This document shows positions 761-18,265 of a stretch of 32,525 bases of DNA, piece by piece. The notes under the pieces were generated by a model. It searched no databases, had not been told where the DNA came from, and saw only the letters and a program-made list of their open reading frames with translations. Positions within the stretch are counted from its first letter, which is position 1. Each line of letters begins with the position of its first letter. The DNA is from Chromatiales bacterium (GTDB lineage Bacteria; Pseudomonadota; Gammaproteobacteria; SZUA-140), in the NCBI GenBank assembly GCA_031285245.1, contig JAITWN010000165.1, positions 1 through 32,525 of the forward strand, given 5' to 3'. The translations under genes and the position numbers were made by a program.

Positions 761-868
761 ATGTTCCCAGGTCTTTTGGTACCGATTGTTATCTTCTTTG
801 GCCTAGCTGTTTTTCTGTCGAGCTCTATCGCTGGGCGCGCACTGCAGAACGTCAAGAAGAAGTCTTAA
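761..868 (+). CDS. 35-aa single-TM microprotein MFPGLLVPIVIFFGLAVFLSSSIAGRALQNVKKKS (not in ORF track)
   Basis: Translated by hand. SD-like GAGGGAGGG just upstream, hydrophobic helix with basic tail, followed directly by an intrinsic terminator. Confidence 0.7.
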   Translation: MFPGLLVPIVIFFGLAVFLSSSIAGRALQNVKKKS

Positions 869-885
869 AATACCGCTTGCGTCAG

Positions 886-918
886 AAAAACCCGGCCTCT
901 GAATGCCGGGTTTTTTTT
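886..918 (+). terminator. Rho-independent terminator (possibly bidirectional)
   Basis: AAAAA-CCCGGC-ctctgaat-GCCGGG-TTTTTTTT. Confidence 0.85.
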
Positions 919-964
919 GGCGTTTTTCCGATTACTCTTCCCCACTCTCGCTCATGTTGTGGTC

Positions 965-1504
965 ATGCCTCAGGAAACTCCCGCACAGGATCTGCGTAAA
1001 CTCATCAAGTTCCTGATCGCCTCGGCGTTCTACTTTTTTGTTGGAACTGTCCATGGCGTCGCTCAGGTTATTCCTTCAGTGCGTATCTGGCTCGATTCGA
1101 TTGGCAGCCCCTACGGCGGCCCCGGTCACATGATCGATCCCTTAGCCCACGCCCATATCAACGTCGTCGGTGGTGTCGTGCTCTTGTGCATGGCAGTCAC
1201 TTATTACATGCTCACCACGCTGTCGAGGCGACCGATCTGGTCCATGCGGCTGGTCGATCATTCCTTCTGGTGGACCGCGCTCGGCGTTGCCGGCTTCTAT
1301 TCCACGCTGATGACCTTCGGCATTGTCGAAGGCAATATGCTGCTGCGTGGTGAAACCGAGGCTATCTATAAATTACACCGCTTCTACGGCCCCTTCATCG
1401 CTATCATCTCGACCGGGATGGGCGTGGGTTTTTGGCTGTTTTTTGCCAATATTTTCATGACAGCTAAATCCATTTACTCTACCCCCTCGTCCAAAACCGC
1501 ATGA
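965..1504 (+). CDS. Single-repeat (~4 TM) heme-copper oxidase subunit I-like protein
   Basis: AHAHINVVG...YY...RR..WS...FW aligns without gaps to the helix X-XI region of the CcoN in this window. ATG 965 is preferred because the track's TTG 917 lies in the terminator U-tract. Confidence 0.75.
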   Translation: MPQETPAQDLRKLIKFLIASAFYFFVGTVHGVAQVIPSVRIWLDSIGSPYGGPGHMIDPLAHAHINVVGGVVLLCMAVTYYMLTTLSRRPIWSMRLVDHSFWWTALGVAGFYSTLMTFGIVEGNMLLRGETEAIYKLHRFYGPFIAIISTGMGVGFWLFFANIFMTAKSIYSTPSSKTA

Positions 1505-2034
1505 TACTCGAGTGCGGATGCCCGTCGACTTATCCAGACTGGCACCAGCAAGATGTTGATCTGGGCGGACGCTGCATACACCAGGTTTCGGTTCCTATGC
1601 TGCTGCATATGCCGATTGGCTACGATGCACAGCTACGCCGGCAACAGGACAATATCGATCGGCTTGGACTTGAGGAGACCTGGCCCGGTCTAGCGCTGGT
1701 CCGGACCGGCATGCTGCGCGGCAATATCACCCGACTGCTGGAAAACACGGAATCGCCCTCCCATCACGTTTCCTGGCTGCCGCGCCCTTATCAGGTCTAC
1801 GCTCATTTGCATCATGGTGGGCTTGGCAGCGTACGCCCTGCACTGCGCGATATGCAGGCTCGGCTGCTCGATACCGGACGCATGCCTGGAGAATTACTGT
1901 TGGGACACTTGACCTGCACACGATGTGCAGATCAGCGCGGTGGGGAAAAGATACTTCTGCTCAGGCAGTGGCGCGAAAGCGCCGTATTACGCAAACGCAG
2001 AGAAAAAACAACCGGCGCTAGCGTGAAACGCTGA
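1501..2034 (+). CDS. Hypothetical soluble protein with CxC and CxxC motifs (possibly GyrI-like fold)
   Basis: ATGA overlap with the upstream gene; N-terminal ECGCP and C-terminal TCTRC; fold assignment is tentative. Confidence 0.6.
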   Translation: MILECGCPSTYPDWHQQDVDLGGRCIHQVSVPMLLHMPIGYDAQLRRQQDNIDRLGLEETWPGLALVRTGMLRGNITRLLENTESPSHHVSWLPRPYQVYAHLHHGGLGSVRPALRDMQARLLDTGRMPGELLLGHLTCTRCADQRGGEKILLLRQWRESAVLRKRREKTTGASVKR

Positions 2035-2392
2035 CCGGAAACTCCAGCACTCGCTCTTCAAGCCGATCACGCAGATACACATAGAGCGTCTGATCGCCAG
2101 AATCCAGCCGTACTGCCCGCCGATATACACCGATGTTGCCATCCTGAATCGCTTGCTGCCAGGGCGCATCGGGCTTGCTACGCAGAGACACCACCAAATC
2201 TTTGGCCGGTAAGTGATCTGAATTAGTGGCCACGATCATGAATTCATTCATTCCTTGTCGCAGAGGAATCGGGCGAAATTCGATCGTGATATTGATATCA
2301 CCCCATTGCTGAGACGGCAATCTCGACTGATCTCCATCATTACCGCAAGCAAGCAACATCAGCATCACCAGCATGACGACGAAAATCCTCAT
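2018..2392 (-). CDS. Lipoprotein with FixH/YtkA-like beta-sandwich domain (CcoH-like)
   Basis: Start at ATG 2392 (ATGA overlap with upstream stop) gives a signal peptide with lipobox LLAC. Pattern P.P...G.N.F...G.Y resembles YtkA/FixH domains. Located in a cbb3 cluster. Confidence 0.6.
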   Translation of the reverse strand: MRIFVVMLVMLMLLACGNDGDQSRLPSQQWGDINITIEFRPIPLRQGMNEFMIVATNSDHLPAKDLVVSLRSKPDAPWQQAIQDGNIGVYRRAVRLDSGDQTLYVYLRDRLEERVLEFPVSVSR

Positions 2393-2703
2393 GCTGGATC
2401 TCTCGCATCCGCAGCATTGTGCTGGAGATAATCTAGGATCATGCGTAACTGCTCGGGCGGAATCGGCCCAATGCGGGTCGCAATCCTGCGTTGTTGCATA
2501 CGCGAAACGATCGCTGGCCACTCCGACGCAACGCGGCTACCCGACTGAGGCGCCGCGTGGCAACCACCACAATAATAGAGATACGCCTTCTGTGGCTCAT
2601 GCGGCGCATAATTTTCCTGCGCCGACGGAGGAGGTCCTTCAGAGGTACATGCCGCGAGCATCAGCGCACCAACAATTCCGACAACCGCTCTAGCCTGCAT
2701 CAT
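2389..2703 (-). CDS. Monoheme cytochrome c lipoprotein
   Basis: Lipobox LAAC, heme motif CGGCH, and W...V.RM downstream motif providing a candidate axial Met. Confidence 0.8.
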   Translation of the reverse strand: MMQARAVVGIVGALMLAACTSEGPPPSAQENYAPHEPQKAYLYYCGGCHAAPQSGSRVASEWPAIVSRMQQRRIATRIGPIPPEQLRMILDYLQHNAADARDPA

Positions 2704-3161
2704 GGTTTGCCAGAAGCATCCTGCTTCGATTCGCTGCTCTCATCGCTTCTAGACTGCTTGTCGCTATCGAGTCTGCCCGCGATGTTGCTACCGTAGAACT
2801 GAACCATAAAATAAACAAAAGCACCGAAAACCAAGATATACGCGATCGCGGCACCAAAACCCCAATTGACCCACTCGCGCTCATATCCCGGGCGATCGCC
2901 CCAGAACGGAAAACTCAGACCTATCGCCACCAGAAACACCATGACGATAATCGCGATGAACCAGACTGGGACATTGCGCTGCGACTCAGGGATTCGGTCT
3001 ACCAGCTCCCAATCCTCAAGACCGCGCTTGGCGAGGCGCTCTTCATCCGAAGCATAACCAAAGTGATCATCCGGCTGCGCGCCCCACTCACTGTGCACCG
3101 GATCCAGATTGGGAGCGGGCTTCCCGCTTTCATCCTGAGATTGTTTCTCTTCGTCGCTCAT
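2700..3161 (-). CDS. 2-TM membrane protein, short paralog of 10770..11405
   Basis: Shares I.E.....P...FP.WG.RP and W...G....I.Y...F...V...V blocks with the 211-aa protein; translationally coupled on both sides. Confidence 0.75.
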   Translation of the reverse strand: MSDEEKQSQDESGKPAPNLDPVHSEWGAQPDDHFGYASDEERLAKRGLEDWELVDRIPESQRNVPVWFIAIIVMVFLVAIGLSFPFWGDRPGYEREWVNWGFGAAIAYILVFGAFVYFMVQFYGSNIAGRLDSDKQSRSDESSESKQDASGKP

Positions 3162-4501
3162 GCGCCTCCCTCAACCAGATGATGGACGCGGAAACTACGA
3201 CGCTCGCCATCTGGCGCGTTGAGATAAACCAAGAAAGGATGTAGCCCAGGCGCAAGACCAGCATTGATACGCAGATGGATATCCTTGCGACCGGCGCTCA
3301 AAAATTCGGCGTGATCCGCCTCTAACTGATAAGAACCCTCAGGCAGACCTTCGACGCTGACACTAATATCAACTGGCTGATAGAGCTTGCTCGCGATATT
3401 GATGCGGTAATCCCACTCGGCAGCATGCGCAGTCTCCGCGCGGTAAACCGTGTGTCGATAGGCATCATAAGACCACAAGCCCCAAGTGAACAACGCCACG
3501 CCAAACGCTGTCAGCATCGCTGCCCAAGGCGCACGCAACATCACCGAACCAACGTTGCCGCGTCGAGACGTCTGCGCGCCACTCTGCTCTCCGAACCCGA
3601 AACGCAGAAGACTATTGCCGGTCTTGCGCGCGCCGCGCACGGTGCTGCACGCAGTAATGCATTCACCACAGTTGATGCAGGCGTCATAAACCACCGTCTG
3701 CCGCGGATCAATGCCGATGAAGCAGGAGGTTTCGCAGAAATTACAACGCGCGCATTCATCCTGGTGGCTATTGTCATAGGCGATACGCAAGGTCTCACGT
3801 GTCTTAAAAGAATGCTGCCAAACACGATAGACACACATGAATCTGCACCAGAAGTGGCGCACAAACGCGATGTTGACGAACAGTATCAACACGAAGATGG
3901 TGTATATCCAATGCAGAGAGCCCGCGAGACGCTCATCGTGTTGGAACGTTACGAAATGCCACAGTTGTTCTGGAGAATAGAAATAGAACATCGGCACAAA
4001 CGCCGTCACCATTGCCGCGAGGAGAAAAACGCTACCGAGGATCGTCCAGTTGATCCACTTGTTTTTGCCAGAGGAAACTTTAATCGGCTTGCCATCCAGA
4101 CTGACCTCCGCGCGCTTACCAAGCAAGCGGTGCGTCATGTGATTAGCCCACTCAGCGAGCGTATTCTGCGGGCAGGACCAACCACAAAATGCTGTACCAA
4201 CTAGCGAATAAGTCATCACCAGCAGACTGGATAGCGCCAGCCATAAACCAATCACGATGTAGAAATCAGAAAACCAGATCTGCCGATCAAGGACAACGAA
4301 CGCACCATCCACCGGATCAATACGGAACAATCCGGAAACGGGGATCAGGATCGCAAGCAGAACTGTACCGATTTGGACTGCGCGGCGCCGGCTGTGCAAC
4401 TTGCGACCAGCCTTGGCATCCGCGCTGACAATGGGGATTTGCGACAGTGCCTTCGAGTAGTGCATGCCGCAAATACTAGCACGCGACGCATCATCTTTCA
4501 C
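3158..4501 (-). CDS. ccoG: CcoG/FixG-family membrane 4Fe-4S protein (cbb3 accessory)
   Basis: CGWSCP, CRFMC, CARCNFCETSC and CINCGECITAC motifs; multiple TM helices; C-terminal Ig-like segment. Confidence 0.8.
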   Translation of the reverse strand: MKDDASRASICGMHYSKALSQIPIVSADAKAGRKLHSRRRAVQIGTVLLAILIPVSGLFRIDPVDGAFVVLDRQIWFSDFYIVIGLWLALSSLLVMTYSLVGTAFCGWSCPQNTLAEWANHMTHRLLGKRAEVSLDGKPIKVSSGKNKWINWTILGSVFLLAAMVTAFVPMFYFYSPEQLWHFVTFQHDERLAGSLHWIYTIFVLILFVNIAFVRHFWCRFMCVYRVWQHSFKTRETLRIAYDNSHQDECARCNFCETSCFIGIDPRQTVVYDACINCGECITACSTVRGARKTGNSLLRFGFGEQSGAQTSRRGNVGSVMLRAPWAAMLTAFGVALFTWGLWSYDAYRHTVYRAETAHAAEWDYRINIASKLYQPVDISVSVEGLPEGSYQLEADHAEFLSAGRKDIHLRINAGLAPGLHPFLVYLNAPDGERRSFRVHHLVEGGA

Positions 4502-7131
4502 GAACCGGGCACGCTACGCACAGCATCGCCAAGCTGGGTTGCAGTGCGCACTTCACGGTCGAGCGGATTGACCGCAGAAAGCCGGGAAAGATACTGCGCA
4601 GCGAGCTCAGCATCACCGGTATCACGCGCCATTTGCCACAACATCCGCAGCGTATCGGCATGATCAGGGCGTGCGCGTAACAATGCCTCAAGCACCTGAC
4701 GGCGCTGTACAAATGGAACGCCACCGAGACTCGAAAGAACATTGTCTGCCAGAGCGAACCCCACCCAGCGGTCTTGCGGGTTCACCTCGAAAGCCGAGCG
4801 AATGAGCCGCTGTGCATCCGGCATATCGCTATTGATGCTTGCCAACCATGCGCGCAAGGCCAAAGCAGAGCCACTATACCCGCGCTCAAAATGACGCTCG
4901 TCCGCCGCATCAACACCAAGCTCTTTCATAGCGCTAGCTAGCGATGGGCGCTGCTGCAACAGCCACGACAACACCACATCGAGCTCGATACCGCCACCAT
5001 AACGCGCATGGGGCAAGCCGAACTCGATACGCGGCCACCATTCATCCTGCATGGGCCCCTCTGCGATCACCACTCGGCCGCAGTAGCGGCCGAGCCAGGT
5101 CCACAGACCTTCGCCACCGGTTTGATCAGCGCTCTGCGCCGAGCTCTCAGCGGATATTCTTTCCTGGACTGCACGCAGTCGTTCACGTGCATCAACACCA
5201 GACAAGCCGCCGACCATGGCGATGCGAAATCCATCCATGAACATCGCCGCATCTGGGAACACGTGCTCAAAGCTGCGCAAAACCGTTTGCAACGATTCAA
5301 TATCGAATTGATTCAGTGCCAGCCACTGCACAAAAACACCGCCCGGCGCGAGACGTGCGCGAGCACGCTCGAACTGCTGCACGGAAAGCAGCGCACTGCG
5401 CCCCACCAGATCAGGATGAAAAACATCGCCGACGATGACATCAAAGCGAGCGCTACTGACGCTGAGATAACGCCGCGCGTCATCACGCACAATCGTCGCA
5501 TAATCGCCCACATTGCCATTCACCGGCTTAAACCATAAGCGCGCAGCTTCGATCGCCCCTGCGGACAGCTCAACCGCGACACGGTCGAGAGCCGGATACC
5601 CGAGAGAACCCGCTGCCGAGACACCGGTTCCAAGTCCGAGGAAAAGTATCGAGTGTGGATCTGGGTGCAGTAACAATGGCAAGCGTGCCTGATTTTTCTG
5701 CAACTCCACCGCGGCCTGCTCGCTAGACGCATCCATACGCTGCAAATCACTCAGCAGAAGACGCTGCCCATCAGACTGCTCGATCACATGAGTAATCGCC
5801 ATAGCATCTTCATAGCGATAGAGATCATGACTTTCTTGCTGAGCAGGCATAAGTTTGGAAACCGGGGGGAAAACAGCAACTGGCGAGGCGAGCACAAGAA
5901 CAACTGGTAGCGCGAGCCACGTTACTCGTGAAGCCCACACCATTGCAGCTACCAACAGCGCCACCGCACCGACCACTATCGTCGCTGGCGTCCCAATCGT
6001 CGGCACCAGCAACAGCCCTGCAACCAATGCACCCAGCGCCGCACCAATCGAATTGATTCCATACAACAAAGGACCATGCGCACTGCCGCCATAGCGCTGA
6101 CTTAATAACGGCAGCCAGGAACCGAGCACAAAGGTCGCTGGTAGCGTAACAACAGCGAGTATTATTCCCTCGCTCCACAACGCTGCGGCAAGCGTGGAAA
6201 ACTCCTGGCGCTGAGCCCATGAGGAAATCCAAGGCAACGCATAAAGACTTGCGATACCAGTAGCCGCAGCCAGCATTGGCAGTACAGACAACCAATGCGA
6301 ACTCCTCATATGGCGCGCCAACAAACTACCAAGGCCGATGCCAAACAGATAAACCGCAAGGATCACTGCCATCACATATTCGGTGCGCAGCAACACCATA
6401 CCGTAGAGGCGAGTCCAGCCAACTTCGAGCAGAATCGCTGCAGCGCCAACTACGCCATATGCAAATAGCGCCAGCAGTGGTAGCGATAGCGCATCCGCGC
6501 TAGAAAGTGCAGAAGTATGTTCAGTACGCGCCCCACTCCAAGCCAGCAACGCTGCACCTCCCGCGACCAGAAGTCCTAGTGCTGCAATCCAACCGATCGA
6601 TGCCGTCCAACCGAACGCAGGCAGCAGCCACAATGGCAACAAGGCTCCAATCGCTGCGCCACAAGCATTGAACCCATAGAGCCGACCCAGCGCATGCTCG
6701 TCATCCGCGCCCATCGCGCGCAAGATCATGGGGAAGCCTGCCCCCATGGCAATCGCTGGCAATAGCATGAGGAATAGTAGTGCGCCCCCCTGCAAGAACA
6801 ACCAGGCGCTGAGCGACACATCAGGAGCAAAAACAGTCAGCGCTTTTTCCGCGTACCCAAGCAGCCAGGGCAGCACCAAAGCATAGAGCGCGATGGAGCC
6901 TTCGATGAAGGAAAATATCAGTAGCGGCTGCCGGCGACGTCCTAGCCAGCGTATGGCGAGCAAGCTGCCAAGACCAAGGCCCGCCATGAAAGCCGCAATA
7001 GTAACAACCACGCCGAAGATGCTGACTCCAAACTGCATCGACAGCATGCGCGCCCACAACACTTCAAACGCCAGACTAGTCGCACCAGAACCAGCATAGA
7101 GTACCGGAAGCAAGCGTCTCACCATGCTCAC
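4498..7131 (-). CDS. Fused multi-TM membrane domain / spermidine-synthase-like SAM-binding protein
   Basis: Internally duplicated TM region (SLAFEVLWARML / AILLEVGWTRLY; LYGFNACGAAIG / LYGINSIGAALG), then LFLGLGTG, VEL, DDARRYL and FDVIVGD motifs; helical TPR-like C-terminus. Confidence 0.85.
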   Translation of the reverse strand: MSMVRRLLPVLYAGSGATSLAFEVLWARMLSMQFGVSIFGVVVTIAAFMAGLGLGSLLAIRWLGRRRQPLLIFSFIEGSIALYALVLPWLLGYAEKALTVFAPDVSLSAWLFLQGGALLFLMLLPAIAMGAGFPMILRAMGADDEHALGRLYGFNACGAAIGALLPLWLLPAFGWTASIGWIAALGLLVAGGAALLAWSGARTEHTSALSSADALSLPLLALFAYGVVGAAAILLEVGWTRLYGMVLLRTEYVMAVILAVYLFGIGLGSLLARHMRSSHWLSVLPMLAAATGIASLYALPWISSWAQRQEFSTLAAALWSEGIILAVVTLPATFVLGSWLPLLSQRYGGSAHGPLLYGINSIGAALGALVAGLLLVPTIGTPATIVVGAVALLVAAMVWASRVTWLALPVVLVLASPVAVFPPVSKLMPAQQESHDLYRYEDAMAITHVIEQSDGQRLLLSDLQRMDASSEQAAVELQKNQARLPLLLHPDPHSILFLGLGTGVSAAGSLGYPALDRVAVELSAGAIEAARLWFKPVNGNVGDYATIVRDDARRYLSVSSARFDVIVGDVFHPDLVGRSALLSVQQFERARARLAPGGVFVQWLALNQFDIESLQTVLRSFEHVFPDAAMFMDGFRIAMVGGLSGVDARERLRAVQERISAESSAQSADQTGGEGLWTWLGRYCGRVVIAEGPMQDEWWPRIEFGLPHARYGGGIELDVVLSWLLQQRPSLASAMKELGVDAADERHFERGYSGSALALRAWLASINSDMPDAQRLIRSAFEVNPQDRWVGFALADNVLSSLGGVPFVQRRQVLEALLRARPDHADTLRMLWQMARDTGDAELAAQYLSRLSAVNPLDREVRTATQLGDAVRSVPGS

Positions 7132-7199
7132 GCGCGAAGCCCGCTCAGCGCATCACATCTCTCACACCACTTCGCATTGGGAAAAACGCGCACGACAAC

Positions 7200-7574
7200 T
7201 CAGAAGGGAAAAAACCAGACAATTGCCACCACAGCATGAACAATGGCAAGCGTCACGCTGAAGCCAGCAAAGATCGTATGGGCGACAAAGACCTTCTTGC
7301 CATAGATTGCCATTGCAACACCAAGCCCTGCCGCCGTCAGCAAACATATGAGCAGAGCAATCCCCATGACAAAAAGAATGAGATGTTTGCGCTGATCAGG
7401 AATCGCATTGCGCAATTCCGCCGCACGCTGCGCCTCGGTGAATGCTCTGATCACTTGCCCATCGCCGGAAGATTCTGCCGCGAGAACAGTTGCACCAGAG
7501 AAAGAGAAAAATAAAGGCATCATCACCAACACAAGGGTGATACAGCAAAATCTGAGCTGTGCCAAAAAACGCAT
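7200..7574 (-). CDS. Small membrane protein with His residues in or near TM helices
   Basis: N-terminal signal/TM segment plus two TM helices; KHL, VAHT and IVHA; lies in the co-directional operon. Confidence 0.7.
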   Translation of the reverse strand: MRFLAQLRFCCITLVLVMMPLFFSFSGATVLAAESSGDGQVIRAFTEAQRAAELRNAIPDQRKHLILFVMGIALLICLLTAAGLGVAMAIYGKKVFVAHTIFAGFSVTLAIVHAVVAIVWFFPF

Positions 7575-7584
7575 GATGCTGTGC

Positions 7585-7842
7585 TTATCGCTGCTCGGCT
7601 TCGGGGTTCACTTGTTCTTGAGCCCCCTTTTCACTCTCAGGATGACGCAGCGTCCACCAATAAAGCACCGCCATCAAAATAAATGGCACCATCAATATCA
7701 GTAACAGGAAAATGAAGATATACCAGATGGTATCAATGGTGACATGCAGATAGCGGTAGCTATCGAATGCAAAAGCCGGCGCTGGTAATAAAGCCAATAG
7801 AACGAGCGGCCAACGTGACAGGAACTTCAACAACATGATCAT
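7585..7842 (-). CDS. Small membrane protein
   Basis: Signal-peptide-like N-terminus (AFA), one strong TM helix, ATGA overlap with the upstream gene. Confidence 0.7.
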   Translation of the reverse strand: MIMLLKFLSRWPLVLLALLPAPAFAFDSYRYLHVTIDTIWYIFIFLLLILMVPFILMAVLYWWTLRHPESEKGAQEQVNPEAEQR

Positions 7843-10610: not shown

Positions 10611-10742
10611 TTACTCGTTGTCCCGGATGTGCGGAGCGCCTTTGTCATATTTATCTACAAAAAAGCTGTAAATAAAAGGCACAATGAACACAACAATAAT
10701 CGGGAGCAAGAGCACAAGCGGAGGATTATCGACATCAATCAT
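10611..10742 (-). CDS. 43-aa single-TM microprotein MIDVDNPPLVLLLPIIVVFIVPFIYSFFVDKYDKGAPHIRDNE (not in ORF track; CcoQ-like size)
   Basis: Translated by hand. SD GGAGAG upstream; fills the gap between the 211-aa gene and the terminator. Confidence 0.75.
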   Translation of the reverse strand: MIDVDNPPLVLLLPIIVVFIVPFIYSFFVDKYDKGAPHIRDNE

Positions 10743-10769
10743 GACTGTTAACTCTCCAGGTTATATTAA

Positions 10770-11405
10770 TCAATGACCATGATGAACTGGCTGCCAACGA
10801 TAGTTGGGCAGGCGCTTCACCGCAATCATTACTGCCAGACAAAAGTAGGTTACGTAGAAGATATCGATGGTGTAGCCTTTGTCCCACCAGGGCTGCTTAC
10901 GCTCACGCGTACCATCCGCCTTCCAGTTACCCTCGAAGTTCGCCAGCAATACTTTGTAGCCGACGATGGTGTACTCTTCGAGATCCACCCGCGAGTTTTG
11001 CAACTCAATGATCTGATCTTTGACCAGGCGCAATTCGTTCATCGACAATGGATGGCGAACCTGCAGGGCTTCATACTTCGATTGGCCTTCACGAACAATC
11101 CTTACGATCTCAGCCATTGCTGCCTGATCACCGCCCGCTGCCTGCGCAGCTTGAACACGAGGACTATCCATCGCCGCCACATATTCAGCGTAAATTGCGG
11201 CCTGCGGACGTTGGCCCCAGAGCGGGAATGTCATCAGAAACGCGCTGATGATAGTCAGTCCCAGCAGCCATACCACAGGACGCGGCAGACGATTGTTGTC
11301 TTCGGTAATGCCGCCAAGCCCTTCAGCCTCCCACAGCTTGCGGGCCTTATCATTTTGCTCCTCATCAGAAAGACTGAAGAGCGGGTTGTCAAATTTCCAG
11401 GCCAT
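10770..11405 (-). CDS. Heme-less 2-TM protein with CcoP/FixP N-terminal-like anchor
   Basis: GITEDNNRLPR followed by a TM helix resembles the FixP_N GIeE.dNplP motif; no CxxCH; directly downstream of ccoO; strong SD. Confidence 0.8.
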   Translation of the reverse strand: MAWKFDNPLFSLSDEEQNDKARKLWEAEGLGGITEDNNRLPRPVVWLLGLTIISAFLMTFPLWGQRPQAAIYAEYVAAMDSPRVQAAQAAGGDQAAMAEIVRIVREGQSKYEALQVRHPLSMNELRLVKDQIIELQNSRVDLEEYTIVGYKVLLANFEGNWKADGTRERKQPWWDKGYTIDIFYVTYFCLAVMIAVKRLPNYRWQPVHHGH

Positions 11406-11420
11406 GTCTTCCCCCTCTCC

Positions 11421-12371
11421 TTATTTCAGACTCAGAACAAAGTCAATCAGGTAACGCGCATCGCTCTTAGAAGCGGGCTCAGGCACTTCCGGCGGATAAA
11501 TCCGCTTGCCGGAGGCAAAGTCGCTATAGTCAGCGCGCCACTGGTTGTAGTTGATGACATTGCCACTCGCATCCTTCTCACCCCACAGATAGTCATAGCG
11601 GGGCATGATGGAGTGCGGTTGCACCAAGCGCGGATTGAAGAAGTGCATCATCATCCATTCGCGTGAAGAGTTACGTGAACCGACATGCAACAGATCAGGC
11701 GCTTTACGATCCGAACCAAACGCAGTTGGTGATTCGCTGTTGAAGTCACCGAGACGTGGCGGCGCACCAAACGACTGCCAGTCCTGGGTCTGCTCAGGCA
11801 ACAGCGTGTGGCACCACCAGCAGCCTTCGCGCACGAACATAATCTTGCCCGAGCCGACGTGCTGCGTGTCTTTATCGCTGACCGCCTTCAGAACCATATC
11901 CGGCGTCCAACCATGGGTCGCGGTGGCGTTTTCGATGTAATGAATGGGCTCACCATTCCACCGCCCCTCAGTCACCACAAAAACCGCACCTTGAGCTTGA
12001 TTAGCTTGACCAATCTTGCCTTTATCCAAGCTCAGATCTTCAACCCCCTTACCCATGATTCGGGGATGCCGGATCGAACTGGTGAAAGGTACGCCTGCGT
12101 CGTAAACATAGGCATAGGTCTCGTCGATCGGCGCGCCGGTTTTTGGATCGTTCCGGAGTACAACCGTCAGAGGCTTGTTATCTCCATGCAGGAACGGATC
12201 TTCAACCGAGAAACCACCCACACGACCATACATCAAGCCTTTTCTCAGACCCATTTCGGTTGAGGACACCTGCACAATGTCCAGGCTGGGCATGTACAGT
12301 GTGATCATCATTGATCCACCGAGCGCGATACCGAACAATCTCGCGCCAACTTTATATTCGCGGAATGCCAC
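11421..12371 (-). CDS. ccoO: cbb3-type cytochrome c oxidase subunit II (CcoO) with extra N-terminal periplasmic segment
   Basis: REGCWWCHT, GSDRKAPDLLHVG and HFFNPRLVQPHSIMPRY are CcoO signatures; GTG start with SD GGAGG. Confidence 0.88.
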   Translation of the reverse strand: MAFREYKVGARLFGIALGGSMMITLYMPSLDIVQVSSTEMGLRKGLMYGRVGGFSVEDPFLHGDNKPLTVVLRNDPKTGAPIDETYAYVYDAGVPFTSSIRHPRIMGKGVEDLSLDKGKIGQANQAQGAVFVVTEGRWNGEPIHYIENATATHGWTPDMVLKAVSDKDTQHVGSGKIMFVREGCWWCHTLLPEQTQDWQSFGAPPRLGDFNSESPTAFGSDRKAPDLLHVGSRNSSREWMMMHFFNPRLVQPHSIMPRYDYLWGEKDASGNVINYNQWRADYSDFASGKRIYPPEVPEPASKSDARYLIDFVLSLK

Positions 12372-12412
12372 GTCTGATTCCTCCCCTAAATATTATGCTT
12401 GCGGATATCCGA

Positions 12413-13819
12413 TTAGCGCTCGTACGCAATCTCGTGGGGCAGACGGCCCGCCGGGATTACAGTACCTTCGCGCGCAGTCATCCACATGTTGTAGAGCCAG
12501 ACGAGATTTCCGGTGAAAACCATGGTGCCGCCCACCCAACGCGCGATCATATACGGATGCTCCGCAATCACGACGTCAATGTAAGGAACCTCATAGATCT
12601 TACCTGCGCCCTGGATCAAACCTGCAATGGTCATCGAGATCCAGTAGATCGTGAAACCGATCAGCAGGAACCAGAAATGGAAGTTGGCCAGTGCGAGCGA
12701 ATACAACTTGCGGCGCATGATGGTCTGCAAGCCGTAGTAAACTGCAGCTGCTTCCAAGAAGGTGGAGAAGCCAAGCAGCGCAAGGTGAGCATGCGCCACG
12801 ATCCAGCCAGTACCATGGATATACCAGTTGATCGCACGGGTCTGCTGGAAACCACCCTGCATGTTGAGCGGAATCGCCATCAGCACGCCGGTGATGGTGA
12901 ATTTGATCTCAACGTTGTCGACAAAGAAACGCCACTTGCCCGTCATGGTGAGCAGCAGGTTCGACACGAAAGCGATTGCCGGCACCAGAATCAACACACC
13001 TTCCACTGAAGCGAATGACTTGAGCCACTCCGGCAACGGAGAAGACATCAAATGATGCGCAGCAGGCGTGGAGTAGAACACCACCACTGACCAGAAGTGC
13101 AAGTGACCGATACGGTGTGAATAGAGCGGATTACCCGTAATCTTCGGCACTGTATAGTAAGCAATAGCTGCAGCAACTGGTGTAATCCACAAACCGAGCA
13201 CATTGTGTGCGAACCACCAAGTCAGATACGCCTCGGTGAGCCCGGTGAGCTGGAAGTACTCCGGCAGGTTACCTACGAACAGCACGATGAACAGCATAAA
13301 GACCGCAGAAGCGAAGAACCAGTTGGTAGTGTAGATACCCTGAGTACGACGCTTGATAACCGTCATCCAAACGTTGATGCCGAGCGGCACAATGACACCA
13401 AACAGGATGATGAGGTCAATGAACCAAGGGAAGTCGGAGTATTCACGGCCAGAACTCATACCCGACCAAAGACACGTCAATGCTATCGACAAACCTGCAT
13501 TCCAGACGAAACAGTTCCAAACACCGAGTTTTTCAGACCAGAGCTTGGTATTACCGAGGGCTGGCGTGATGTACATCATTGCCATCGCGAAAGCCATCGA
13601 AATCCAGCCGAAAATCACGGCCATCACATGCACCTGACGCATGTGCCCAAACGAGAACAGTTCCGAACCAGTAACAAAGTCAGGGAACGCAAGCTTGGCG
13701 GCATTGAACGAGCCAAGACCCGTCCCAATAACAAACCAAACGATGGAAGAAATGCCAAAATATACGGCGGATGAACCCCTTGGGATATCCTCGGTTTTGG
13801 CGAACAGGTACTTGAACAT
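12413..13819 (-). CDS. ccoN: C-family (cbb3-type) heme-copper oxidase subunit I, divergent
   Basis: All six His ligands present (RQVH, WWFAHN, AAHH, AHAH); helix VII Tyr in YSTPAAHH has the C-family spacing; REY, YYTVPK and LYS..HFW motifs. Confidence 0.93.
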   Translation of the reverse strand: MFKYLFAKTEDIPRGSSAVYFGISSIVWFVIGTGLGSFNAAKLAFPDFVTGSELFSFGHMRQVHVMAVIFGWISMAFAMAMMYITPALGNTKLWSEKLGVWNCFVWNAGLSIALTCLWSGMSSGREYSDFPWFIDLIILFGVIVPLGINVWMTVIKRRTQGIYTTNWFFASAVFMLFIVLFVGNLPEYFQLTGLTEAYLTWWFAHNVLGLWITPVAAAIAYYTVPKITGNPLYSHRIGHLHFWSVVVFYSTPAAHHLMSSPLPEWLKSFASVEGVLILVPAIAFVSNLLLTMTGKWRFFVDNVEIKFTITGVLMAIPLNMQGGFQQTRAINWYIHGTGWIVAHAHLALLGFSTFLEAAAVYYGLQTIMRRKLYSLALANFHFWFLLIGFTIYWISMTIAGLIQGAGKIYEVPYIDVVIAEHPYMIARWVGGTMVFTGNLVWLYNMWMTAREGTVIPAGRLPHEIAYER

Positions 13820-13912
13820 CGGACTTACCTCCCCCCTAAAGCGCTATTTTCGTAATCCCTGCCTGCATTTTCCGTGGCCTAAATATATAGAGCCCGCGGA
13901 AGCAATGCTTAA

Positions 13913-14008
13913 TCAGGAATGATCGCCCGGCATCAGCAAATACCAAGCAAACCACATGCTCGAAAACGCGAGCATAATACAACTGATTGCTGCAATCATA
14001 GCCAACAT
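13913..14008 (-). CDS. 31-aa single-TM microprotein MLAMIAAISCIMLAFSSMWFAWYLLMPGDHS (not in ORF track)
   Basis: Translated by hand. Strong SD GAGGAGG; lies between the 91-aa gene and ccoN. Confidence 0.7.
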   Translation of the reverse strand: MLAMIAAISCIMLAFSSMWFAWYLLMPGDHS

Positions 14009-14068
14009 TGCTACCGCCTCCTCGGATACTGGTGAACTCGCGGACAGACCCGAATACTGAACTCGGAA

Positions 14069-14344
14069 TTAATGGGCCGACTTTTCGAGTTCGCCGTGGC
14101 GCTTGAGCGCGAGCATCACGATAATCGTGAATGCCACGCCGAACACGATCATGCACCAGTTCATGAAGCCCTGGAACGTGACCACGTTATAGGCATCGAG
14201 CCCTATGCCACCCCAATCATCGAAAGGACCGCGGCCCAGCGCGCACATAAGTGCCGCACCGAACACGCTGCCATTGCCCATGCCGGTGAGACCGCCACCG
14301 ATGACGGCTACCCAGAAGGTTTTACTGTAGGTGAGACGATTCAT
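14069..14344 (-). CDS. Gly-rich 2-TM membrane protein, first gene of the ccoN operon
   Basis: SD GGAGGGGAG; two hydrophobic segments; GGGLTGMGNGSVFG. Confidence 0.8.
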   Translation of the reverse strand: MNRLTYSKTFWVAVIGGGLTGMGNGSVFGAALMCALGRGPFDDWGGIGLDAYNVVTFQGFMNWCMIVFGVAFTIIVMLALKRHGELEKSAH

Positions 14345-14534
14345 TAACTCCCCTCCGCAGGACTCTGAAATCCGGACATCCTTTCGGCACGCGTGATGTT
14401 ATGACTTATCGCGCCGGTATTCTGGCTTGCTCGATTAACAACTCGAGATAGTGCCAGATGACTACAAAGACGACCTTACTATATTTGTGGCTACAGATGC
14501 TTGCATAGCGATTTCCCCTCGTCAAGCCTGGATA

Positions 14535-14548
14535 TTGATACTTCTCAA
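14535..14548. promoter_or_regulatory. FNR/ANR-type binding site
   Basis: TTGAT-ACTT-CTCAA matches 9/10 of TTGAT-N4-ATCAA, in the divergent intergenic region upstream of the ccoN operon. Confidence 0.65.
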
Positions 14549-14713
14549 TGCAGACTTAATTTTAAAGAAAATCTGATGCCACTAATAATTTTGCACTGCA
14601 GAGAATATCAACCCTGCTGGCCGTCTGCAAGTGTTGAACAGCATGATTATTGAATATTGCAAGCGCATCTATCATGCTTTGATCTTCAGGCTCGAAGTGA
14701 TGTTGGAGAACAC

Positions 14714-14911
14714 GTGAAAGAACTAATTTTTTATGGAATCGTCGGCGTATCCGCGCTTTTCATCCTGGGATTTTCGATACACATGCTGATTGGCGGACTG
14801 GTTGCGCCTGAAACCGAGCAACTCATCATTGTCGCAGCTTGTGTAAGCGGTATAGGCGCCATGGCCTATATGGTGTGGGATGTGCGCAAACGGCGGCGGC
14901 AGCCGCATTGA
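14714..14911 (+). CDS. 65-aa 2-TM membrane protein
   Basis: GTG 14714 preceded by SD GGAGA; two TM helices and an Arg-rich tail. Confidence 0.7.
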   Translation: MKELIFYGIVGVSALFILGFSIHMLIGGLVAPETEQLIIVAACVSGIGAMAYMVWDVRKRRRQPH

Positions 14912-14912
14912 T

Positions 14913-15368
14913 TCACTTGAAGACGCTCAGCTTACCCAAGATTTCCTGATACATCTTCAGATCGCCAAATTGTCCGCGGTGGAAAACATACTGACGACGC
15001 TGTCCGGATAAATCCATTCCACTCAAACCAAATGACTTTCCAGCGTAGTCCGGGAAAAAACGCACGTCTTTTACTAGTTCGACACGATCGCCGCTGCGCA
15101 AACCGACAGTCACTCGCTCTCGGTCACAACTGAGCGATAACGGCGAAGAAGGCAGTAGCATCAATCGACCAGACAGCACTCGATTAGCGCCGGCAAAGGT
15201 GAAGAAGAATCCCATGAAGAAAAGCAGGTAAGCCCAACTCTGAGAGGAGCTGAACCAAAGCTTGGCGCCAGTTGCGAGTAGGAAAATCACGGTGGGGACA
15301 TATAACAACAAGTCCCACACCATTCCTCTTTTATCCTGAGACAGGAGATAAGGCAAAGGCTCTTGCAT
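14913..15368 (-). CDS. Hypothetical protein with 2 TM helices and a small soluble beta domain
   Basis: Last gene of the 17096-14913 unit, starting 4 nt after the upstream stop. Confidence 0.75.
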   Translation of the reverse strand: MQEPLPYLLSQDKRGMVWDLLLYVPTVIFLLATGAKLWFSSSQSWAYLLFFMGFFFTFAGANRVLSGRLMLLPSSPLSLSCDRERVTVGLRSGDRVELVKDVRFFPDYAGKSFGLSGMDLSGQRRQYVFHRGQFGDLKMYQEILGKLSVFK

Positions 15369-15372
15369 AAGA

Positions 15373-15900
15373 TCAACCGACCTGCTGCCCCCGATCTTCC
15401 TGCCGCAATTGCACCGACATCACTCGTGTGAGCGTGGCATCCAGCTCATCGTAAAGCAATCTGCCCGCACGCTTGAATTGCACGACTTGGTTGCGATCGA
15501 TGACAAAAGTCCAAGGGTCCCCCATAACCTGGAAGGCTGTAAACGCCTCGGGATTGCGATATTGGTCCATGTGCAGGAAGAGTACATCATTCTGGTACTT
15601 TTCCATGATGCCCTTGAGCATTTGCAACTGCACATCGCAGACTGTGCAATGGCCTGGCGTTGCGAATTCAAGTACGACAGGCTTACCTGCCGCCAGCGCT
15701 TTATCAAGAGAGTACTGGTACATCCTTTCGTCAGGATAACGATAGGTCGTGATGAGACTGAAATCACCGCCAACATCAGCGAGAGTCTTGGTAGTTAGGG
15801 AAGGCGCGACAGAGCCTACGGTGACGGACTTTTGTACATCACACGCTGTCAGTGAGAACACCGCCAGGATACCCGCTAACGTCAAAAAACGTTTGCTCAT
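15373..15900 (-). CDS. Thioredoxin-fold lipoprotein (CxxC)
   Basis: Lipobox LTAC; KPVVLEFATPGHCTVC; GDPWTFVID (cis-Pro region); ATGA overlap at 15897-15900. Confidence 0.85.
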   Translation of the reverse strand: MSKRFLTLAGILAVFSLTACDVQKSVTVGSVAPSLTTKTLADVGGDFSLITTYRYPDERMYQYSLDKALAAGKPVVLEFATPGHCTVCDVQLQMLKGIMEKYQNDVLFLHMDQYRNPEAFTAFQVMGDPWTFVIDRNQVVQFKRAGRLLYDELDATLTRVMSVQLRQEDRGQQVG

Positions 15901-16445
15901 CCCTTGCGCCCCCACCCTGGATCTTTTTCCCAACCCATGCAGGTACGAAAAATATTGTAGCCCCAGATCATATTAGCCAGCAGAACCAGAGATCCGAAAA
16001 TACCCAGCGCCCCCATTAGTGGACGGATCATTTTTTCCACTTCATCCGGCGCGTGCAACAAACTCTGCGTTCCGCTGATTATTCCAGCCGTAGTAAACAT
16101 GATTACCATTCCAAGCAAGCCTGTGTTGTGAATCCAAAAATGGACTTTCACCAGACGCAGGCTATGAATTTCGCGTCTTACTAGGCGCGGAATGAAATAA
16201 TACACAGCACCAAAAATCGCCATCTCCACCCAACCCAGCAAGTTGACGTGAGTGTGAGCGCGCACGATCAACTCTCCGCCCATTCCTGCGCGCCCATGAA
16301 CAAATTGGCGAATCTCTGGAATACCGCCCATCAGCGCGCCCCAGGAAAAACCGATGATGCTATATATGATGCAGGCATAGACAAACAGCAGCGTATAACG
16401 TGTGTATTCCTTGTCGATCGCCCAGGGTTCATTGACGCTGCTCAT
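15897..16445 (-). CDS. Single-repeat (~4 TM) heme-copper oxidase subunit I-like protein
   Basis: AHTHVNLLGW...AVYYFIP...RR..HS...HFW aligns without gaps to CcoN helices X-XI; ATG 16445 has SD AGGAG. Confidence 0.8.
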   Translation of the reverse strand: MSSVNEPWAIDKEYTRYTLLFVYACIIYSIIGFSWGALMGGIPEIRQFVHGRAGMGGELIVRAHTHVNLLGWVEMAIFGAVYYFIPRLVRREIHSLRLVKVHFWIHNTGLLGMVIMFTTAGIISGTQSLLHAPDEVEKMIRPLMGALGIFGSLVLLANMIWGYNIFRTCMGWEKDPGWGRKG

Positions 16446-16502
16446 TTCCGCTCCTGTCTTGCTACACACTTAAATCAAAGTTACAAACCATAATCAAAAA
16501 TT

Positions 16503-17096
16503 TCACTCGCTCGGCGCATTGCCTTTTTCTTGCGGCACTTCTTTCTCGCGTACATCACTGTACTTTTCTTTCCAGGACTCCGGAGCAAAATTTTTCAGCA
16601 TATTATCCACGAACGCCGATTCGCCCTTGGGCGGGGCAGGCGCCGACGGAGAGCCTTGATCTGATTTGAGCTCTGAGAGGAAAATCGAGATTAATCGCAA
16701 TTCTTCAGAAGGTAGCAAAGACACAGAGGCGGCCTCTTTGGGAGGATAGCCATGATCAAATGTCTTTGCGCCATAAACTGCCTCTGGGTCACGCAGGAAG
16801 TTGTAGATCCATTCCTGAGTCCGACGCGAACCTAGGCCATCGAGTGACAAGCCCATGTTGGTGCCGTTGCGCATCGCTCGATGGCAAGCAGTACAACGAT
16901 GGGTGCGGAAAAGTTCTGACCCGCGTTGACCATCTGCGGAAAGATCGAAGTGAGTGGTGACCTCAAACACTGCCCCGCTGGCACGCAAGCGGTAGGCTTC
17001 TAAAGCGAGGTATGCAAGCACCGCAAAGCCAATGAAAGCTATAGCGATACCGAACAGGATCTTTTCTCCCTGCTTTAATGACTGTCCGCCGGCCAT
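16503..17096 (-). CDS. Membrane-anchored monoheme cytochrome c (CcoO/NorC-like)
   Basis: N-terminal TM helix, CTACH, GLSLDGLGSRRTQEWIYNFLRDP. Confidence 0.85.
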   Translation of the reverse strand: MAGGQSLKQGEKILFGIAIAFIGFAVLAYLALEAYRLRASGAVFEVTTHFDLSADGQRGSELFRTHRCTACHRAMRNGTNMGLSLDGLGSRRTQEWIYNFLRDPEAVYGAKTFDHGYPPKEAASVSLLPSEELRLISIFLSELKSDQGSPSAPAPPKGESAFVDNMLKNFAPESWKEKYSDVREKEVPQEKGNAPSE

Positions 17097-17122
17097 GGCG
17101 CGATTATCCAGTAATAGCAGCC

Positions 17123-17136
17123 TTGATGCAAATTAA
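17123..17136. promoter_or_regulatory. FNR/ANR-type binding site
   Basis: TTGAT-GCAA-ATTAA (9/10 match) inside the longer imperfect palindrome GCCTTGAT..ATTAAGGC, between the terminator and ATG 17096. Confidence 0.6.
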
Positions 17137-17153
17137 GGCACTGATGAGAAAAC

Positions 17154-17178
17154 AAAAAAGGGCGGGTAACCCCGCCCT
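17154..17178 (-). terminator. Rho-independent terminator of the cytochrome c4 gene
   Basis: Minus strand AGGGCGGG-gtta-CCCGCCCT followed by a T run. Confidence 0.85.
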
Positions 17179-17239
17179 CTTGATCAGCCACCACATTGCC
17201 GGCTATCGACACCGGCAGCGTGGGGCTTATTTCATGTAC

Positions 17240-18013
17240 TTACTTCCCCCGGACGGAGACGTGACGCTCCGGGCGACGATAATTGCCCAACGTATACGGC
17301 GAAGCACCCGTCAAGAACGCCGCAGCATTATGGATGTCCTCATCGGTCATCTTGCGCGCTACTTTCTGCATCTGCTCAAGCGGGTCGTTGTTGCGACTGC
17401 CATCGCGCCAGTTGGTCAACTGGTTAACGAGGTAAACGTACTTCTGCTGACCGATCATGGGATAAATCGGCTCAACACCACGGCCATTGTAATCATGGCA
17501 AGAACGGCAGGCAGGAATATCACGCTCCGACACACCAAAGCTGACGATTCTCAAACCTTGAGCAGGATCACCAACGGTAACGCCTGCTTCTCTCAACGCT
17601 TTGAGATTGGAAGAACCCGTAGCTGATATCTTAGGGTCATGAGCCAAGCTGCTCACGTAGGCAGCCACATCGCGGCGATCTTCACTAGTCAGCTGCTTGG
17701 CGAAGATAGGCATCACCACACCCGCGCCGATACCAGCACGCCGATCTGTCGCAAAATCCTCTAACTGCTTGACTATAAATTCCACAACTTGACCGGCAAG
17801 ACGGGGAGTTCCCAGATTATCATTCCCCATTGCGTCCTCTTCGTGGCAAGACATACAAGCTGGCACATCGCCCTTGCCGTTTCTGAAGATGGACTGACCG
17901 TTCTCCAAACTGGCCGTTACGAAGCCGCCCCCCGCGGCCTGGACCTGCGCTACCGCGCTGACGGCGATAATCGCACCGGTGAGCATCGAAGCCAGGGTCG
18001 TTAAGCGTCGCAT
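17240..18013 (-). CDS. Periplasmic diheme cytochrome c4 (Cyc1-like)
   Basis: Sec signal peptide; CMSCH and CRSCH; PRLAGQ and YPMIGQQ motifs; candidate axial Mets (VMP, QMQ). Confidence 0.92.
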   Translation of the reverse strand: MRRLTTLASMLTGAIIAVSAVAQVQAAGGGFVTASLENGQSIFRNGKGDVPACMSCHEEDAMGNDNLGTPRLAGQVVEFIVKQLEDFATDRRAGIGAGVVMPIFAKQLTSEDRRDVAAYVSSLAHDPKISATGSSNLKALREAGVTVGDPAQGLRIVSFGVSERDIPACRSCHDYNGRGVEPIYPMIGQQKYVYLVNQLTNWRDGSRNNDPLEQMQKVARKMTDEDIHNAAAFLTGASPYTLGNYRRPERHVSVRGK

Positions 18014-18064
18014 TGGATCCCTCTCAAGAAGTTTTCTTATGTACGTTCAAGCAGCAGATGGCGC

Positions 18065-18093
18065 ATGATACGTACGTGAATATGAAGCGTCAA
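18065..18093 (-). promoter_or_regulatory. sigma70 promoter for the cytochrome c4 gene
   Basis: Minus strand TTGACG (18093-18088), 17-nt spacer, TATCAT (18070-18065), about 50 nt upstream of ATG 18013. Confidence 0.7.
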
Positions 18094-18175
18094 ATCGTTT
18101 GTCGCGCCGCCGCAGCAATTCCGCATGCATCCATACCCCAGGAGAAAGCCTCCTTGAGCAGGGTAAATGCGGTAC

Positions 18176-18265
18176 TCAGGAATTCTTCTTCAGCAGGAAA
18201 GCTGCGAAGCCCAGAGCGAGCGGGAACCAAACGGCATAAATGATAAGTACCTGGCCTGTCGACAT
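18176..18265 (-). CDS. 29-aa single-TM microprotein MSTGQVLIIYAVWFPLALGFAAFLLKKNS (not in ORF track)
   Basis: Translated by hand. Purine-rich AAAGGGGGG 5 nt upstream; clean hydrophobic helix followed by KK. Confidence 0.62.
   Translation of the reverse strand: MSTGQVLIIYAVWFPLALGFAAFLLKKNS

Follow-up and report, generated by a model that had tools for sequence, protein, structure and literature searches.

Which enzyme is built by the genes that surround ccoN and ccoO on a 32,525-nucleotide contig of a Chromatiales bacterium (GCA_031285245.1, JAITWN010000165.1; contig C137 in our numbering), analysed here over its full length as 'the window'? From the sequence alone, the original prediction had described a divergent, CcoP-less cbb3-type oxidase with its own assembly pathway, and had pointed to a likeness to the cyc1 or 'distal' cbb3 cassette of neutrophilic iron oxidisers. 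That likeness is borne out: the same 26-gene order is given in a figure legend for 'Candidatus Tenderia electrophaga' (bioRxiv 10.1101/2022.05.06.490989). The cluster is thus already in print and is a further instance of a published cluster type, not itself a discovery; the cassette also occurs in Gallionellaceae, Ferrovum and Zetaproteobacteria. The reading we consider likely is that the cluster is an orthologue of the published 'distal' cbb3 cassette, in which one block of genes (module A) encodes an O2-reducing, C-family CcoN-CcoO oxidase and a second block (module B) an optional donor-side module. An oxidase of this type may be where iron- or electrode-derived electrons finally reach oxygen, and the studies cited below report high expression of it both in iron oxidisers of neutral waters (neutrophilic species) and in Ca. 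Tenderia, an electroautotroph grown on cathodes.

Gene content and published counterparts

The inventory was drawn up from open reading frames (ORFs), their translations, and Pfam and NCBIfam scans, with small membrane proteins recognized by hydropathy. The cluster spans 917-19914 and comprises 27 co-oriented or tightly linked genes, 26 of them within 761-18265 and the 27th a divergent glycosyltransferase-like (GT-like) gene at 18481-19914 that travels with the cluster; 23 of the 27 lie on the minus strand, in two runs. The content expected beforehand, some 27 genes including CcoN, CcoO, four more c-type cytochromes, two truncated CcoN homologues and a thioredoxin, was borne out, and the anticipated minimum of ten small membrane proteins became a count of 12, two of which are newly called ORFs (31 aa and ~65 aa). 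Translational coupling had been claimed as well: neighbouring genes do overlap at 10 of 23 junctions, 8 of these by 4 nt in an ATGA or GTGA arrangement, with an internal ATG taken as the start in two cases, and coupling itself is inferred from those overlaps. We place the cluster end at 19914 because the right flank consists of housekeeping genes. For comparison, one genome per species was scanned among relatives, yielding 362 stretches with a CcoN relative, of which the best 80 were kept as loci with 10-kb flanks; the presence counts given for each gene refer to the loci long enough to reach it. The genes are listed below (TM, transmembrane; FGE, formylglycine-generating enzyme).

917-1504, plus: truncated CcoN copy 1 (miniN1); PF00115 33.7 bits over profile positions 304-411, TIGR00780 positions 304-414; start uncertain, with an ATG at 965
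1501-2034, plus: 177-aa Cys/His-rich protein, ATGA overlap with miniN1; weak PF20603 match, 20.8 bits, below cut-off; situated outside the 10-kb flanks covered in the related loci
2018-2521, minus: lipoprotein-like protein, likely start 2392, lipobox LLAC; no Pfam family; in 3 loci reaching so far
2389-2703, minus: monohaem cytochrome c lipoprotein (CGGCH); in 14 loci at >=50% coverage
2700-3161, minus: mem153, 153-aa two-TM protein with a PFWGxRPG motif; 41/54 loci
3158-4501, minus: CcoG-like polyferredoxin membrane protein; TIGR02745 105 bits (cut-off 316.7), Fer4_18 and Fer4_5 above cut-offs; 48/56 loci
4498-7131, minus: 877-aa fusion of a ~11-TM domain, a spermidine-synthase-like domain and a TPR tail; NF037959 81 bits (cut-off 40), PF01564 29.9 bits; 51/57 loci
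7200-7574, minus: 124-aa membrane protein with conserved His in two C-terminal helices; 53/59 loci
7585-7842, minus: 85-aa protein with signal peptide and single TM helix; 55/63 loci
7839-8921, minus: membrane-anchored FGE-fold protein without catalytic cysteines; PF03781 193.4 bits; 59/65 loci
8918-9421, minus: three-TM protein, likely start 9385; 58/67 loci
9385-9873, minus: TM-anchored monohaem cytochrome c (CKECH); PF00034 31.7 bits; 67/68 loci
9860-10153, minus: CcoS/FixS-like single-TM protein, 97 aa; PF03597 19.1 bits (cut-off 23.1); 70/71 loci
10166-10498, minus: two-TM protein, conserved from about residue 38; 69/73 loci
10611-10742, minus: 43-aa single-TM protein; 68/74 loci
10770-11405, minus: haem-less FixP_N-like protein, 211 aa; PF14715 20.6 bits (cut-off 24.9); 75/75 loci
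11421-12371, minus: CcoO with a ~140-residue periplasmic insertion; FixO 65.4 bits; 79/79 loci
12413-13819, minus: CcoN, catalytic subunit, 468 residues; PF00115 261.9 bits
13913-14008, minus: s31, newly called 31-aa single-TM ORF between mem91 and ccoN; tblastn E<0.01 at the same position in 77/80 loci
14069-14344, minus: mem91, 91-aa Gly-rich membrane protein with a TGMGNGSVFGA motif; 77/77 loci
14657-14911, plus: newly called ~65-aa two-TM ORF, convergent with p151, conserved from ~14711; tblastn E<0.01 in 53/80 loci
14913-15368, minus: p151, 151-aa protein with N-terminal TM helices and a cytoplasmic domain; 52/71 loci
15373-15933, minus: thioredoxin-fold lipoprotein, conserved HCTVCD; PF00085 24.5 bits; 50/69 loci
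15897-16469, minus: truncated CcoN copy 2 (miniN2); PF00115 49.9 bits; the database start gives 182 aa
16503-17096, minus: TM-anchored monohaem cytochrome c (CTACH); PF00034 31.2 bits; 50/68 loci
17240-18013, minus: periplasmic dihaem cytochrome of the c4 type (Cyc1-like), two CXXCH, signal peptide; PF00034 in two stretches; 50/65 loci
18481-19914, plus: 9-TM GT-like membrane protein, divergent from cyc1; weak PMT_2/EpsG matches below cut-off; 36/56 loci

The closest published counterpart is the cbb3-1/cbb3-2 region of Ca. Tenderia electrophaga (ALP51721-ALP51744), presented as conserved and as holding 26 genes in the Fig. 2B legend of the Tenderiales preprint (10.1101/2022.05.06.490989). As listed there, a dihaem cytochrome, a monohaem cytochrome, a truncated CcoN, a thioredoxin, small proteins, CcoN, CcoO and further small proteins stand in the order seen in the window, and the likeness continues through a monohaem cytochrome, the FGE-fold protein (entered as 'serine threonine protein kinase'), a single-TM protein, CcoG, a monohaem cytochrome and a truncated CcoN. 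Two Tenderia-labelled loci among the 80 (L023 and L052), with CcoN 88% identical to that of the window, match the legend in the same way. To the published description, as far as the legend carries it, the present analysis adds the sequence of the 31-aa ORF, the likeness of one product to CcoS and of another to FixP_N, the domain inserted into CcoO and the missing cysteines of the FGE fold. Tenderia also has canonical ccoNOQP and a fused ccoNO, neither of which was found in the window's metagenome-assembled genome (MAG; 1.9 Mb in 222 contigs, 87.7% complete, a scope that applies to all genome-wide negatives given here).

The preprint further states that most products of the region are membrane proteins and that it had been seen earlier in freshwater iron oxidisers (10.1101/2022.05.06.490989). 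Eddie et al. 2017 (mSystems, PMC5371394) report the Cyc1 region as syntenic with M. ferrooxydans and place Tenderia 'complex IV-2' among the most highly expressed genes, with canonical ccoNOPQ weakly expressed. S. lithotrophicus ES-1 is described as having proximal and distal cbb3 clusters, with a cyc1 homologue adjoining a cbb3 cluster and distal ccoNO expressed ~3-fold above proximal (Zhou et al. 2022), and both cbb3 forms together with a conserved cytochrome cassette are reported for Zetaproteobacteria (McAllister et al. 2020). As these accounts present it, the distal cbb3 of ES-1 and of Zetaproteobacteria is likewise a second, non-canonical ccoNO set beside a cyc1 homologue. Among our loci, the Sideroxydans-labelled L061 has CcoN 84% identical to the window protein and both modules. 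The 'distal' label for the window CcoN was reached by elimination, since a Sideroxydans MAG (G003) pairs a canonical CcoN with a cluster-type one; the name of the distal subtree of cbb3 oxidases reportedly goes back to Ducluzeau et al. in 2008.

Conservation and linkage of two modules

CcoN is 84-95% identical over all 468 residues in the best 80 of the 362 loci, whose labels include Ca. Tenderia, Gallionella, Sideroxydans, Ferrovum, Chromatiales and Burkholderiaceae MAGs. A protein search beyond these loci returned a Mariprofundus ferrooxydans-named protein (78% identical) and proteins from Zetaproteobacteria MAGs (77-79%). The neighbourhood comparison proposed beforehand found the accessory genes together with CcoN, for example the FixP_N-like gene in 75/75, the CcoS-like gene in 70/71, the FGE-fold gene in 59/65 and the CcoG-like gene in 48/56 loci, and since the set recurs in 80 related loci it lies above chance. 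The genes form two blocks. Module A (2018-14344) runs from mem91 through mem153, and its genes were found in 76-100% of the loci that extend to them. Module B (14657-19914) contains cyc1, an anchored cytochrome, a truncated CcoN, the thioredoxin-like protein, p151 and the divergent GT-like gene, at 64-77%; its genes other than the GT-like one occur in 49-52 of 65-71 loci. In at least 11 loci one module has been inverted or transposed with respect to the other, yet the two remain adjacent (L022, L039, L056, L061, L064, L065, L070, L072, L076, L079 and L080). In rearranged loci the GT-like gene stays with module B and the ~65-aa plus-strand ORF still adjoins p151. Counterparts of miniN1 lie at the equivalent far end, on the opposite strand, in three relatives (G001, G002 and G003).

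Such tight linkage invites a stronger reading, in which most of the two modules' ~20 membrane proteins, with both truncated CcoNs and all anchored cytochromes among them, form one obligate large supercomplex wired to extracellular electron uptake; the Tenderiales preprint proposes 'a sort of alternative complex IV' (10.1101/2022.05.06.490989), and we regard this form of it as unlikely. It would agree with the fact that nearly all products are membrane-bound, with the tightly overlapping gene junctions, with a linkage that persists through rearrangement, and with the uet-like multihaem cluster found on contig C178 of the host genome (see below). It would also fit, through many contact surfaces, the slow divergence of CcoN, the median identity of which is 86.5% across the 80 loci (two proteobacterial classes) against 42-67% for its neighbours (CcoO 66.5%, other cluster genes 42-63%). 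However, about a quarter of the loci lack module B in their flanks, the module moves as a separate block, and homologues of CcoG, CcoS and thioredoxin are assembly factors rather than subunits in studied cbb3 systems.

That the accessory genes are neighbours by descent only, with no functional tie and a synteny that mirrors genome relatedness, is very improbable: most of the 80 loci do come from related Gamma- and Betaproteobacteria, and the preprint itself cautions that co-distribution may be an artefact of relatedness (10.1101/2022.05.06.490989), but several products are homologous to cbb3 parts (truncated CcoN, FixP_N-like, FixS-like and CcoG-like), and linkage survives inversion and reshuffling while the flanking housekeeping genes are rarely retained (fpg in 19/80 loci, psiE in 4/80), which argues for a functional linkage and not for mere relatedness.

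Class and catalytic residues of CcoN

CcoN passes the Pfam gathering score for the 12-TM COX1 fold (PF00115 261.9 against 34.8, profile positions 4-436) and matches solved cbb3 structures at E 1e-61. Judged by its sequence it is non-canonical, falling outside the ccoNOQP clade and below the curated equivalog cut-off (TIGR00780, 225 bits against 583), as CcoO does for TIGR00781 (63 bits against 200.65). The phylogeny, set beforehand as a test, comprised 81 rows: 71 representatives of 440-560 aa, the window CcoN, and 5 cluster-type, 2 canonical and 2 fused sequences. The tree is rooted by midpoint only, and its SH-aLRT values come from a quick search. All 7 cluster-type rows group in a single clade (support 100, starred) on a long stem, and the canonical enzymes fall into a separate 8-row clade (support 100, starred), with several starred branches between the two, as the original prediction had anticipated. 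In a 50%-identity library of 1.84 billion representatives, the cluster CcoN clade has one full-length representative (88%); the next match is 57% identical over CcoN residues 9-334, and other full-length matches reach <=39%. Two of five relatives' genomes (G002 and G003, one Sideroxydans-labelled) hold a canonical CcoN (665-672 bits) alongside the cluster type. A third class, fused CcoN-CcoO-looking, was seen in open frames of 973-997 aa (G001:C2:1286350-1287684 and G002:C1:37765-39126; L097, L100); these carry Gln323 and fall on the non-canonical side in the phylogeny.

In an alignment to 3MK7 chain A, all seven ligand and cross-link positions (H60, H207, Y251, H257, H258, H345 and H347) are kept in the window CcoN and in 7/7 cluster-type rows. 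In P. stutzeri CcoN numbering, we take the six histidines to be the ligands of haem b, haem b3 and CuB, and Y251 to be the cross-link tyrosine of helix VII, a residue typical of O2-reducing C-family enzymes. Glu323, which presumably adjoins the haem b3 ligand, is Gln in 7/7 cluster-type rows and Glu in 3 canonical rows with the full ligand set, and Tyr317 is Ala in the window CcoN. Because Gln323 is also present in 20 of the 22 other non-canonical rows that retain the full ligand set, we read it as a mark of non-canonical enzymes, not as a defect.

These residues bear on a further reading, namely that the enzyme is not an O2 reductase and instead reduces nitric oxide, has some other activity derived from the C family or is a relic without catalysis. 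The chances of this appear slim. It draws on the scores below the ccoN and ccoO equivalog cut-offs, on Gln323 and Ala317, and on a loss of ligands that is common in the wider CcoN-like family, the full set being kept in only 22/48 and 4/18 representative rows (P0121-P0270). Yet none of the 7 cluster-type rows has lost any of the three CuB histidines or the helix-VII tyrosine, Gln323 is the rule among non-canonical rows with all ligands, and the distal genes are reported as highly expressed in aerobic cultures (Zhou et al. 2022, as far as its expression results go). The cytochrome c-dependent nitric-oxide reductase (cNOR, NorBC) shares a 12-TM subunit of the same superfamily and a monohaem cytochrome c partner, but its match is far weaker (E 2.8e-8) and the window CcoN retains the tyrosine. 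The window CcoN and its two truncated copies are also the only haem-copper oxidase matches in the genome, which further encodes a cytochrome bd. As to the wider family, the ligand loss in about half of the full-length CcoN-like representatives would reflect either degenerate oxidase-like proteins or local misalignment.

Missing subunits, their possible stand-ins and the host genome

The cluster shares with canonical CcoNOQP plus CcoGHIS (P. stutzeri, PDB 3MK7/5DJQ) the C-family subunit, the haem and CuB ligands, the cross-link tyrosine, the CcoO haem domain and, by matches that stay below the curated cut-offs, CcoG-like and CcoS-like genes; it differs in the lack of CcoP, CcoQ, CcoH and a Cu-ATPase, in Gln323, in an extra CcoO domain and in ~18 extra genes. 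The description 'CcoP-less' holds in that no dihaem CcoP was found at cut-off genome-wide (best TIGR00782 match 39.8 bits against 179.95), and needs qualifying in that a haem-less protein with a weak match to the CcoP N terminus directly follows ccoO. FixQ (CcoQ) and FixH (CcoH) have no match anywhere in the genome. No P-type ATPase lies inside the cluster, in keeping with the absence of CcoI noted beforehand, and in the rest of the genome P-type ATPases are represented only by fragments at the ends of contigs C171 and C65. The expected contrast with the accessory genes ccoGHIS is accordingly partial, as FixH and the Cu-ATPase are absent from the cluster but putative CcoG-like and CcoS-like genes are present.

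Three candidates for the place of CcoP emerge from the gene content. The FixP_N-like protein has no CXXCH motif, and 11/23 of its orthologues match PF14715, all below cut-off; its AF2 model (mean pLDDT 80.5) has a helical periplasmic domain between two TM helices, and returned no PDB match by profile against PDB sequences or by Foldseek (best E 4.4). Its N-terminal part has a paralogue in mem153 (hhalign probability 88.5%, E 2.7e-6). CcoO carries its haem domain at residues 174-270, aligning with canonical CcoO 55-155, and between the anchor and this domain an insertion (residues ~30-173) with a predicted fold at pLDDT 87-96 and no solved-structure match (Foldseek, best E 0.27). Besides CcoO, four c-type cytochromes with CXXCH are encoded (one dihaem, two anchored monohaem and one monohaem lipoprotein), and the two anchored ones, at 9385-9873 and 16503-17096, are mutual paralogues (hhalign 99.3%). 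Co-located cytochromes were suggested to replace subunit III in the Ferrovum JA12 paper.

The truncated CcoN copies both match COX1 profile positions ~304-411. The miniN2 profile aligns with CcoN residues ~333-462 of solved cbb3 structures, that is, the last helices with the HxH haem-ligand motif, and H71, H73, H109 and H113 are invariant in miniN2. Truncated CcoN homologues populate 763 clusters that are annotated solely as subunit I. A complex prediction of miniN2 with the anchored cytochrome at 16503-17096 (score 0.01, mark 0.32) counts neither for nor against binding.

Several products resemble maturation proteins. For the CcoS-like protein, 15/23 orthologues match FixS at E<=0.01 and QFDEDIKY is invariant; the CcoG-like protein conserves CGWSCPQ and two CxxCxxCxxxC motifs. 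The FGE assignment made earlier stands for the fold (PF03781 193.4 bits) and not for the activity. Formylglycine-generating enzymes have a pair of catalytic, copper-binding cysteines near the C terminus, whereas the sole Cys of this protein lies in its N-terminal TM helix and no Cys is conserved in the domain (57 rows); with no Cys outside the membrane helix, it cannot act as a formylglycine-generating enzyme. Its nearest solved structures are ToxD, OvsA, EgtB and FGE, the solved-FGE matches covering residues ~180-275 only. The spermidine-synthase-like protein was likewise recovered, within the 877-aa fusion (NF037959 81 bits, PF01564 29.9 bits), which fits the subfamily 'fused MFS/spermidine synthase' (NF037959) and fails the SpeE equivalog (TIGR00417 39.6 bits against 249.55). 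A CcoA-like copper importer was considered for this fusion and dropped, there being no conserved Met/His motif pairs in 44 rows, a weak negative. A search of the ESM Atlas gave no lead for mem91 (0.76) and a weak one for p151, to bacterial PH-like families (0.93, 141 shared features).

In the reading we prefer, the CcoN-CcoO core of module A would reduce O2, which we take to be the substrate. The FixP_N-like haem-less anchor, the CcoO insertion and the anchored monohaem cytochrome at 9385-9873 would stand in for CcoP, this cytochrome probably assuming the electron-entry role, and several small membrane proteins of module A are likely subunits. Maturation would fall to the CcoS-like and CcoG-like proteins and perhaps to the FGE-fold and fusion proteins. 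Module B would provide a periplasmic electron supply through the dihaem c4/Cyc1 cytochrome, the second anchored monohaem cytochrome, the truncated CcoN with its HxH helix and the thioredoxin-like lipoprotein. A bolder version, which we offer tentatively and doubt, is a new oxidase architecture of CcoN-CcoO, haem-less CcoP-like anchors, two anchored monohaem cytochromes and truncated CcoNs as small b-haem carriers, where the extra haem modules substitute for CcoP and accept electrons of high potential from donors outside the cell, such as Fe(II), minerals or cathodes, and CcoN owes its conservation to many subunit contacts; each truncated CcoN, a third of the oxidase fold in size, would then serve as such a carrier. 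Purification, complexome profiling and structure determination have concrete targets in the haem-less FixP_N-like protein and mem153, the domain inserted into CcoO, the newly called 31-aa and ~65-aa ORFs, the FGE fold devoid of catalytic cysteines, Gln323 and the two-module layout.

Several points weigh against the assignment of the cluster to a distal O2-reducing oxidase with a donor-side module. The CcoP-N-terminal, CcoS and CcoG assignments all score below curated cut-offs. A likeness of the anchored cytochromes to CcoO was unsupported (hhalign 4.8% and 0.6%); their role is a guess from position and topology. With Gln323 and Ala317, the enzyme may deliver protons or tune haem b3 in another way than those studied, and, the genome being incomplete, a canonical oxidase may have escaped assembly. 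In ~1/4 of loci the 10-kb flanks contain no module B, and this module may be dispensable because the full-length Gallionella-labelled L051 and L066 lack it within that distance. The Tenderia papers, in the passages that treat the question, disagree on the main oxidase, the canonical enzyme being predicted as such in one (10.1101/2022.05.06.490989) and complex IV-2 being the highly expressed one in the other (PMC5371394). In ES-1 the distal genes are reported to have risen on thiosulfate, not on Fe(II) (Zhou et al. 2022), so the cluster is not iron-specific. A search of the accessible literature returned no purification, structure, mutant or biochemical data for any member of the enzyme type.

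Compared with a classical Cyc2 iron oxidiser, the host looks Tenderia-like. The search for cyc2 suggested at the outset came back empty, with no Cyc2-like ORF by a crude rule (350-600 aa, one CXXCH near the N terminus), and the genome yielded no RuBisCO large subunit, although autotrophy is described for its relatives. Since the MAG is 87.7% complete and only 1.9 Mb, either absence may be an assembly gap. On contig C178 (~4800-17000) an 11-haem cytochrome of 928 aa is grouped with one 4-haem and three 3-haem cytochromes, a set resembling the uetA-J extracellular electron uptake cluster as outlined for Tenderiales, which that preprint ties to the cbb3-1/cbb3-2 region (10.1101/2022.05.06.490989). 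A 5-haem and monohaem pair on contig C115 looks like alternative complex III.

A few minor features of the window complete the map. Two ORFs are probably spurious, one at 13836-14156 (106 aa; 9 loci), overlapping the better-conserved mem91 and s31, and one at 18090-18284; an antisense 61-aa ORF (22 loci, weaker) looks, like the 106-aa ORF, to be a shadow of the newly called small ORFs. FNR/ANR boxes with one mismatch at 14535 and 17123 were rejected as not conserved: sites of this type numbered 3 in all against 1.19 expected (8/100 shuffles reached 3), and one was seen upstream of mem91 in 5/75 loci (shuffled control 2) and upstream of the anchored cytochrome in 0/62 (shuffled control 0). To the left of the cluster, an ORF at 8-595 (plus strand, 195 aa, coiled-coil-like) enters from the contig start with a weak ATG17-like match (E 6e-4, below cut-off). 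The right flank (20496-32497) encodes fpg, a DUF4340/ABC-auxiliary/ABC-2 transporter set, ptsP, HPr, EIIA-Man, rapZ, hprK, ptsN, rpoN and an lptB-like ATPase; psiE likewise belongs to this flank, with its ptsP-npr-rapZ-hprK-ptsN-rpoN block.

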